The position numbers were made by a program, and so were the translations under genes. Shown here one piece after another: positions 8,230 through 9,045 of a stretch of DNA of 64,000 nucleotides (position 1 is its first letter; every line of letters begins with the position of its first letter). The notes below the pieces were generated by a model that was given only the letters and a program-made list of their open reading frames with translations, searched no databases and was not told the origin of the DNA. The stretch comes from Abditibacteriota bacterium (GTDB taxonomy: Bacteria; Armatimonadota; UBA5829), in NCBI GenBank assembly GCA_017445025.1, contig JAFSVJ010000084.1, forward strand, positions 980 to 64,979. Direction: 5' to 3'.

Positions 8230-9045
8230 TTACTTCCAGTAGTATTCGTAGTAAAGTTGTGGATTCCAGTATTCAGAGGTTTCACCCCAACTGTTGTTGC
8301 CTGAAGCGTCACATTTACCATAACCGGCACCTATTTTAGTATCGTCACCTAAACCGGTTGTTCTGTAAAGATCGTTTGGAACTAAAGCTCTATACATCTT
8401 TGCGTGACCGTCTAAGAAACCGGCGGGAGTTTTTCTGTTATGTCCCTTGTTAGAAACACCTCTGTAGTAGAAAAACTGCATTGATTCGATGATTGCAACG
8501 GATTCGCCCGGGTTTTCATATTCGGCAAGAGCTTCACCTTCTTTTCCCCAGTAGTCAGTTCCACCGGCCCAGAAGGGGTAAGGGCTTGGCCCACAGACAT
8601 AAGCACATGTCCAAAATGAATCACTGTAACCTTTGTTGCTGGGACATTTAAATACGCCGGGGTTCTTTCCGGTTCTTTTTCGAGCTTGATCATTATCGGT
8701 CCAGGTAATGTTATCTCCCTCTGCTAACCATTTGGCGTATGAACCGTTTCCTGCTACATAGTCATATAAACAACCTATACCGTTGGGACGACCGTCAGTT
8801 AAGTAGGCTGAAAAACATGCAAGATATGCACCTGAACCTTGTCCGTAGCATCTTGGTGTTGTTTCATCCCAGTCGTCCATGTAAAGTAATAATCCTGTGC
8901 AGATATTCTTTACATTGGACAAACAGTTGTTTCCTCTTGCTTTTTCTCTTGCTTGGGCGAATACGGGGAATAGAATTGCAGCAAGTATGGCAATAATGGC
9001 TATTACTACCAACAATTCTATTAAGGTAAAACCTTTCTTGAACAT
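8230..9045 (-). CDS. DUF1559-type prepilin with H-X9-DG motif (cassette A, complete and connected to the promoter)
   Basis: [35 protein letters not shown] class III signal peptide; C-terminal [20 protein letters not shown]. Confidence 0.95.
8987..9005 (-). repeat. Left inverted recombination site (TAATAGCCATTATTGCCAT) within prepilin A codons 14-20
   Basis: Exact reverse complement of 10627-10645; sits in imperfect dyad TGGTAGTAA-TAGCCA-TTATTGCCA. Confidence 0.8.

Follow-up and report, generated by a model that had tools for sequence, protein, structure and literature searches.

The window analysed here, a 64,000-nucleotide stretch of DNA (G000:C46:980-64979) from a 2.85-Mb genome of 35% G+C in 122 contigs, contains a prepilin-like gene, a tyrosine recombinase gene and a headless paralog of the prepilin-like gene in the opposite orientation (Table 1). 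In its present form, the prepilin-like gene consists of a short head joined to a longer body, referred to below as cassette A. Its product is recognized as prepilin-like by N_methyl (PF07963; 34 bits, cut-off 21.2) and by TIGR02532 (36.4 bits, cut-off 16.3), and the prepilin cleavage/methylation motif, G↓FTLIE, sits in the head. The bodies of the two paralogs are 70% identical in amino acid sequence and score 19.6 bits (cassette A) and 21.1 bits (cassette B) with the DUF1559 model (PF07596), both below its gathering score of 23.3. Cassette B is without a start codon, a signal peptide or a promoter of its own; in-frame stops lie immediately upstream (stop-I-stop-IIIIAIIAIL), and its earliest ATG occurs at 10743. 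Downstream of each cassette is a gene for a small Pro/Gly-rich protein followed by a terminator-like hairpin (7778-7806 on the A side, 11734-11758 on the B side), and the small proteins are presumably co-switched with their cassettes.

Table 1. Features of the locus, in window coordinates
Feature	Position	Strand	Remarks
Small single-pass Pro/Gly-rich protein A, 73 aa	7931..8152	-	Downstream of cassette A
Prepilin-like gene, present form (head + cassette A)	8230..9045	-	271 aa; N_methyl domain
Outer inverted-repeat arm, 178 nt, 88%	8828..9005		Partner 10627-10804; conserved N-terminal coding part of both cassettes
Proposed core site A, 24 bp, TGGTAGTAA-TAGCCA-TTATTGCCA	8988..9011	-	Codons L12-I20 of expressed gene
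Head: start codon and codons 1-14 of prepilin-like gene	9006..9045	-	Contains cleavage/methylation motif
Invertible segment, 1621 bp	9006..10626		Bounded by inverted sites A and B
Palindrome ACTTGGnnnnCCAAGT	9094..9109		Directly downstream of proximal -10
Proximal consensus promoter, pointing at head	9123..9152	-	12/12, TG-extended; conserved in L010
Distal consensus promoter, pointing at head	9246..9275	-	12/12, TG-extended; conserved in L010
Tyrosine recombinase, 348 aa, phage-integrase type, N-terminal arm-binding domain	9452..10498	-	PF00589
Promoter-like site before recombinase gene, within invertible segment	10525..10553	-	11/12, TG-extended
Proposed core site B, 24 bp, TTATCATAA-TAGCCA-TTATTGCCA	10621..10644	+	Left arm weak, 5/9
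Headless cassette B	10626..11372	+	Paralogous frame begins abruptly at 10627
Small single-pass Pro/Gly-rich protein B, 79 aa	11483..11722	+	Downstream of cassette B; also after B in L010

Short inverted repeats bound the segment between the two cassettes, which holds the recombinase gene with its promoter, two consensus promoters, three palindromes, an RBS and prepilin codons 1-14; the last two bases of V14 fall within the core site. The promoters and the head lie inside the segment and cassette B is headless, which is the expression-head layout of vsa-type switching. The palindrome ACTTGGnnnnCCAAGT recurs at 9218-9233 and 9362-9377, each head promoter having one copy after it, and three of its five copies in the genome are found in the segment. 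It is a candidate 5′ UTR hairpin, operator or accessory site. Rfam and tRNA scans of 7000-12600 returned no matches. As a candidate outer recombination site, the perfect 60-nt inverted repeat at 7858-7917 / 11856-11915 was rejected, because it is part of a dispersed repeat with 26 copies.

The recombinase matches PF00589 over residues 170-335 (52.7 bits, cut-off 27.1), carries an Arm-DNA-binding domain, and matches the phrog_1 integrase family with E=2.9e-50. The catalytic residues R205, K230, H291, R294, H321 and Y331 are all present and align with those of the XerA-like protein 4a8e_A. Among solved structures, its best relatives are XerA-like proteins and Tn1549 Int; among annotated proteins, integrases from temperate phages of Fusobacterium, Staphylococcus and Butyrivibrio come closest, at 28-32% identity. 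Relatedness to Rci was probed by tblastn against 72,556 plasmids (E≤1e-5), which yielded seven records, none of them IncI or enterobacterial; the FimB/FimE model NF007370 gave a partial match of 25.1 bits against a cut-off of 221. The enzyme belongs to none of the Rci, FimB/E and Piv families. It is present as a single copy, with no relative found in the genome_contigs collection, none at E≤1e-20 in 27 other genomes of the family, and none at E≤1e-12 in 400 other genomes sampled from the phylum; seven relatives were found in the database at E≤1e-10. Two more distant relatives, on L011 and L012 (34% and 28% identity, respectively), have no prepilin gene beside the integrase; judged by its ORF translations, L011 may be a small mobile element. 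The two other genomes of the genus have in common with the locus only the conserved N-terminal ~100-160 nt, at 72-85% identity. By these comparisons, the recombinase looks like a recently recruited phage-type integrase.

The proposed core site in the signal-peptide codons

The reverse complement of 8980-9012 reads TTGGTAGTAATAGCCATTATTGCCATACTTGCT and encodes residues L12-A22 of the 271-aa pre-protein. A sequence-only reading of the window had described at this position a dyad with a TAGCCA spacer, a 19-bp identity between two inverted copies and later synonymous differences, all of which were found as stated. Homology between the copies begins exactly at TAATAGCC, the second copy running from 10627 on the plus strand. 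The first identity run covers 19 bp (8987-9005 / 10627-10645, inverted) and begins exactly where the headless paralog starts; after it the copies differ, initially as ATA/ATC and later as CCC GTA / CCG GTT. From this divergence the same reading had placed the crossover in the core. However, the 19-bp run is not marked by length alone, because the outer repeat holds longer runs further out (19, 20, 2, 31, 7 ... 34), and the divergence is by itself insufficient to locate a crossover; the placement nevertheless agrees with the join seen in the contig L010, described below. The outer arms are 92% identical over their first 100 nt, compared to a median of 76% for pairs of paralogs.

The genome contains 93 prepilin heads that match a degenerate 17-residue N-terminal motif, and nearly all share the identical 17 residues. 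The core sequence is not a mere outcome of this conserved peptide, because the 93 heads encode it with 56 different 18-mers; the exact 18-mer of the core occurs twice in 2.85 Mb, both times at the arms described here. Only two of the 93 heads have an exact inverted partner within 8 kb, namely the head of this locus and that of a second locus on contig C105. The motif TAATNGCNATTATTGCCA, in which the spacer wobble positions are left free, has five matches in the genome, comprising two inverted pairs and one single, and three single matches across the 27 other family genomes, in none of which was the recombinase found at E≤1e-20. No further copies of the spacer with the right arm exist in the genome, leaving two sites per locus. 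A 16/18 match at 31469-31486 was set aside as chance; the 414-aa ORF that contains it, and in which it reads KAIIAN, has no relation to prepilins.

The dyad itself calls for a more cautious interpretation than the typical core-site form for which it had been taken. The arms of site A are indeed complementary at 7/9 positions, but this follows largely from the coding sequence: the same 7/9 is reached by 29 of the 93 paralog heads, compared to 0.4% of random genomic 24-mers. The amino acids fix four of the nine arm pairs, no score above 7/9 can be reached, and the codons ATn-GCn-ATn-ATn-GCn-ATn (I-A-I-I-A-I) are palindromic at all non-wobble positions. The dyad is thus mostly a by-product of the LVVIAIIA codons. 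Both arms together occur in three of the 93 heads, where position-wise wobble frequencies predict about 0.6; two-arm heads are not depleted among the 93, which gives no sign that other paralogs avoid the site. This small number is also at odds with the expectation that many paralogs would serve as silent cassettes.

The reverse orientation in other assemblies

A metagenome contig of 2718 nt, L010, carries the complementary arrangement. Its recombinase is 87% identical in amino acid sequence to that of the window, and the order along the contig is recombinase, both promoters with their palindromes, head, core, cassette B and small protein B. All 28 informative bases in the 45 nt that precede the core are those of the head side, whereas B-type bases stand at the first 13 informative positions past the 19-mer, beginning at +19; this is interrupted by A-type bases at +116 and +118, beyond which the sequence returns to B-type. 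With head-type sequence before the 19-mer and B-type sequence after it, the join therefore lies within the 19-mer. The contig ends 38 nt before the second junction.

Database proteins extend this picture to each of the four junction types, in three lineages or more (P0010/P0015/P0017/P0023; P0011/P0014/P0018), as protein records only. Head joined to cassette B, with a body identical to cassette B of the window, is found in P0017 (206/206) and in the shortened P0020 (134/134). Cassette A without the head is represented by P0023 (214/216), which begins at its first internal Met, where gene calling would start a headless frame, and is encoded on a 17.8-kb contig, and a sister allele of A exists both at full length (P0024) and headless (P0022 and P0025). 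In a third lineage, whose recombinase (P0002) is intact and 73% identical, P0014 joins the head to an A-like body, and proteins starting MFV-IIAIIAIL continue into either an A-like body (P0011) or a B-like body (P0018); the contig of P0011 has the same size, 2235, as that of P0002. In these protein records, both ends, head and MFV, occur on either cassette, with the join at one and the same codon. Gene-calling artefacts could in principle account for the ORFs with an internal Met as their start; the MFV forms are unambiguous. Both orientations of the segment therefore occur in nature with the junction at the repeat, in DNA for L010 and in protein for the database entries. Some database proteins have mosaic arms, for example P0018, which has A-type arm residues on a B-type body, and these show, at the level of translated sequence, that homologous exchange or conversion between the repeat arms also happens.

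Switching within a sample was also sought in Logan contigs of four runs from bovine, sheep and gut metagenomes. Among the 15 joints listed, none was an opposite-strand joint at 9005/10627, and among the 31 records listed, none bridged a core with at least 31 nt on both sides. The Logan contigs break all around the locus. In X2 and X3, contigs that extend from the recombinase side stop at 10643 and 10645, where the core has its outer border; an assembly-graph branch would give such ends, as would other causes.

A second locus, the proposed switch and its alternatives

The inverted pair on C105 (G000:C105, region L008) is a 22-nt repeat with 21/22 identity and 126 nt between its arms. One arm occupies the same codons of another prepilin gene, which scores 26.9 bits with DUF1559 (above 23.3) and adjoins a GntR regulator; the other arm is non-coding and lies 126 nt upstream. 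Over the 24-bp dyad the two copies agree at 22/24 positions (TGGTAGTAA/TTGTAATAA - TCGCTA - TTATTGCCA), and the similarity ends at both 24-bp borders, with flank matches of 1/7 and 2/7. The confinement of the non-coding copy to 24 bp therefore delimits the site independently of coding constraint. Between the C105 pair and the pair of the window there are two differences, both within the 6-bp spacer and both identical within each pair, a pattern that protein binding at the arms, together with a need for the partners' spacers to match, would produce. The C105 paralog looks like a further substrate, in keeping with part of the earlier suggestion that paralogs elsewhere could be substrates or silent cassettes. 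No pool of silent cassettes accompanies it: the genome search for headless DUF1559 ORFs gave one headless cassette and one ORF cut by a contig end. The C105 promoter (11/12) lies outside the 126-bp segment, and in the flipped reading there is no in-frame ATG, GTG or TTG before the body, features that predict an ON/OFF switch. Headless forms, corresponding to the OFF state, were found in 0 of the 6 members of its protein cluster.

We consider it highly probable that the locus in the window is a two-cassette site-specific DNA inversion switch, in which a 1621-bp segment is flipped between cassettes A and B. The core is very probably the recombination site, and the earlier proposal of a tyrosine-recombinase crossover site in the prepilin helix codons draws support from L010, the four protein junction types and the C105 copy; the exact 9-6-9 architecture of the site is a moderately probable refinement. 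According to this model, the locus's own recombinase would flip 9006-10626 at two 24-bp sites, each composed of a 9-bp arm, the asymmetric 6-bp spacer TAGCCA and a second 9-bp arm, within codons V-V-I-A-I-I-A. Strand exchange would take place across the spacer, with two monomers bound to the 9-bp arms. Whichever cassette faces the head would gain promoter, RBS, start codon and signal peptide in frame, the other would be silent, and the recombinase would retain its own promoter in either orientation. The same enzyme may also flip the 126-bp head segment at C105, which would part RBS and head from the body and so turn that gene ON or OFF.

The length of the outer repeat raises the alternative of RecA-dependent homologous recombination across its 178 bp (88% identity), the integrase being a passenger or what is left of a mobile element. 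Runs of identity reaching 31 and 34 bp, the mosaic arms of proteins such as P0018, and the integrase-type character of a recombinase that is absent from the 400 other sampled genomes of the phylum (E≤1e-12) are all in line with such a process. However, the join in L010 falls within the first 19 bp, at the edge of homology and with one side devoid of it; the headless copy ends exactly at the site, and the tail-joined P0011 and P0018 share their join codon. Furthermore, the C105 pair, one side of which is non-coding, measures only 22-24 bp and is too short for RecA, and the recombinase is intact both in the segment of L010, where it is kept at 87% identity, and in P0002 (73%). Homologous recombination is therefore very unlikely as the principal route of inversion. 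Even less credible is the view that there is no switch, the arrangement having arisen either through chimeric assembly at a sequence that 93 paralogs have in common or as the single scar of a mobile element inserted in a prepilin gene. A chimera could be imagined, since the 122 contigs of the assembly hold many nearly identical N-terminal coding stretches and Logan contigs break all around the locus, but the exact repeats here do not exceed 34 nt, the exact 18-mer is found nowhere but at the two arms, and independent assemblies show the complementary arrangement with the same junction. An insertion, for its part, would leave direct repeats and would not bring with it the gene's own promoter and head.

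A different question is how much of the 24-bp site the enzyme reads. In a site resembling sfx, the spacer and one arm (18-19 bp of identity) would be specific, the inner arm would be bound non-specifically, and the dyad would be a by-product of coding. The 18 bp common to all four sites of the two loci approximate the 19 bp described as conserved in sfx, the left arm of which is variable (bioRxiv 10.1101/2024.10.25.620183). Compared to the complement of the right arm, the inner arms of the four sites score 7/9, 7/9, 7/9 and 5/9, the lowest value being that of site B, and the same dyad score is common among paralogs, both of which would suit such a site. Nevertheless, the non-coding inner arm at C105, TTGTAATAA, still reaches 7/9 with similarity ending at the 24-bp border, and the tail flank of the related lineage, read back from the MFV-I protein as TTGTnATAA, would be the same arm; the recombinase is also no relative of Rci. 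We consider a site of this kind doubtful, although less so than the two preceding alternatives, and retain the two-armed 24-bp site as the working model.

A broader hypothesis can be offered tentatively, as a possibility rather than an expectation: a domesticated phage integrase, carried on its own invertible head, may run a small regulon by cassette exchange in the window and ON/OFF switching at C105. Both would use one 24-bp site in the V-V-I-A-I-I-A codons of the class III signal peptide, with the wobble bases of the spacer (TAGCCA versus TCGCTA) forming a locus code that prevents recombination between loci. Integrases of the Tn1549, lambda and phage types, to which the closest solved and annotated relatives of the recombinase belong, include some that tolerate unlike spacers, a tolerance that would undercut the argument from the spacer. 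Insofar as the ATn-GCn-ATn-ATn-GCn-ATn codons are palindromic, a handful of synonymous substitutions, together with the acquisition of a 24-bp partner, could make any one of the ~93 paralogs switchable.

Known systems and significance

In its logic, the proposed switch is closest to vsa of Mycoplasma pulmonis, with the R64 shufflon also close. At vsa, a head comprising promoter, RBS and 5′ coding sequence is joined by inversion to silent 3′ parts, with the crossover in coding sequence, and the HvsR tyrosine recombinase is described as serving two loci, vsa and hsd (PMC2268961). The head is given there as 714 nt, compared to 14 codons here, and the vsa cassettes form a family that encodes a lipoprotein, whereas the present locus has two cassettes encoding a prepilin-like protein. 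In addition, the recombinase gene here lies on the invertible segment and is of the phage-integrase type with an arm-binding domain. In the R64/IncI shufflon, Rci exchanges C-terminal parts of the prepilin-type PilV at in-frame sfx sites (bioRxiv 10.1101/2024.10.25.620183; PMC9881135), each reported to consist of a conserved 7-bp core and a 12-bp right arm, 19 bp in all, beside the variable left arm (bioRxiv 10.1101/2024.10.25.620183). The two systems share a tyrosine recombinase, a prepilin-type target and inversion at short sites within the reading frame. They differ in the number of sites, two per locus here (below the three or more of a multi-segment system) versus seven in the shufflon, and in their position, which is at residues 12-20, in signal-peptide/helix codons, rather than at a constant/variable border far downstream. 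Moreover, promoter, head and recombinase are the mobile part here, and a domain scan of the prepilin-like protein gave no match to the PilV N-terminal domain.

Moraxella offers a further comparison. There, the inversion junction falls within the shared N-terminal pilin coding region, and Piv is not known to be a tyrosine recombinase. The variable parts invert while the head stays in place, and the targets are true type IV pilins, in contrast to the inverting head segment of the present locus. In M. bovis and M. lacunata, this site-specific Q/I inversion is described as alternating two pilin genes (PMC4073114). More generally, the locus would belong with the gene-altering programmed inversions (PMC9881135) and intragenic invertons (PMC10028968) identified in genome-wide screens. 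In the screen for gene-altering inversions, the annotations 'pilin' and 'tyrosine-type recombinase/integrase' are reported as enriched among predicted targets and neighbours, and the terms 'DUF1559' and 'Lentisphaer' are absent from the main text (PMC9881135). A full-text search of the literature, covering main texts, brought up one unrelated paper and no report of DUF1559 / H-X9-DG prepilin-like proteins under inversion control. New here are the target family, the location of the core inside the codons of the signal-peptide helix, an integrase of phage type that travels on the flipping head, and a probable second target in trans, of the ON/OFF kind.

At this locus, a recombination core lies within the codons of a strongly conserved signal-peptide helix. 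As a compact, self-contained cassette of 1.6 kb, comprising an integrase, a promoter, a 14-codon head and 24-bp sites, it is a potential orthogonal inversion tool. It also carries a warning for annotation, in that 'truncated' paralogs beside integrases may be silent halves of switches. Few protein families of unknown function are as large as that of the DUF1559 / H-X9-DG prepilin-like proteins, of which this 2.85-Mb genome alone has 93, and the switch offers a handle on their biology. A dedicated switch would imply that at least some prepilin-like proteins face selection for diversity or bet-hedging of the sort common to exposed surface structures, as in contact with phage, host or substrate.

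Further prepilin heads and a second candidate switch

The 2.85-Mb genome contains 93 prepilin-like paralogs, in which the N-terminus is nearly invariant and the wobble positions vary freely. On contig C86, a third prepilin head possesses both 9-bp arms of the recombination site, with the spacer TTGCCA; no partner copy for this site was found anywhere in the assembly. A second, smaller switch is predicted on contig C105 from inverted copies of the window-type site. The two copies form a 22-nt inverted repeat (21/22 match) enclosing 126 nt, and this interior holds the RBS together with codons 1–14 of a prepilin gene distinct from that of the window. 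The promoter lies outside the bracketed 126 nt, and a GntR regulator gene occurs upstream.

Features of the switch locus and of related sites (window coordinates unless a contig is named)
Feature	Position	Strand	Location or basis
Palindrome ACTTGGnnnnCCAAGT, three copies	9094-9109, 9218-9233, 9362-9377		within the invertible segment
60-nt perfect inverted repeat	7858-7917 and 11856-11915		beyond both cassettes
Non-coding region	11842-12342		adjoining the 60-nt repeat
Two small proteins	6927-7232, 7239-7583	plus	
189-bp identical block	9006-9078 plus 10627-10742; L010:1477-1665		
X2 contig joints	8236 / 11423 and 7957 / 11471		
Third prepilin head	G000:C86:14022-14045		
Predicted second switch	G000:C105:18411-18580 (L008:1501-1670)		inverted copies of window-type site

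Palindromes and flanking sequences

Of the three ACTTGGnnnnCCAAGT palindromes, two lie immediately 3′ of consensus -10 boxes. L010, a related-strain metagenome contig with the head joined to cassette B, retains two of the three. Only two further copies exist elsewhere in the genome. These palindromes could form 5′ UTR hairpins, or could serve as operators or as accessory sites for the arm-binding domain. The 60-nt repeat belongs to a dispersed family of 26 genomic copies (≤12 mismatches), and in each of the four metagenome runs the summed depth is very high over the non-coding region adjoining it. Two additional single-pass Pro/Gly/Met-rich proteins are similar to the small ones encoded downstream of each cassette.

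Possible exchange between strains and cassettes

The two strains represented by L010 and the window share 189 bp of perfect identity, running through the 5′ UTR, head and core as far as nt 116 of cassette B; the remainder of the locus is ~75–95% identical. This block could have arisen through selection, conversion, or strain-to-strain exchange. In metagenome run X2, one related-strain contig has the 3′ end of an A-type cassette connected to B-side downstream-like sequence on the opposite strand. The arrangement may be mosaic, or the joint may stem from the way paralogous downstream regions map. The N-terminal arms of the database proteins P0018, P0014 and P0009 are themselves mosaic, as in P0018, where a B-type body carries the A-type residues GNN...ICTGLLL. 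These mosaic arms suggest conversion or homologous exchange inside the 178-bp repeat shared by the cassettes in some lineages.
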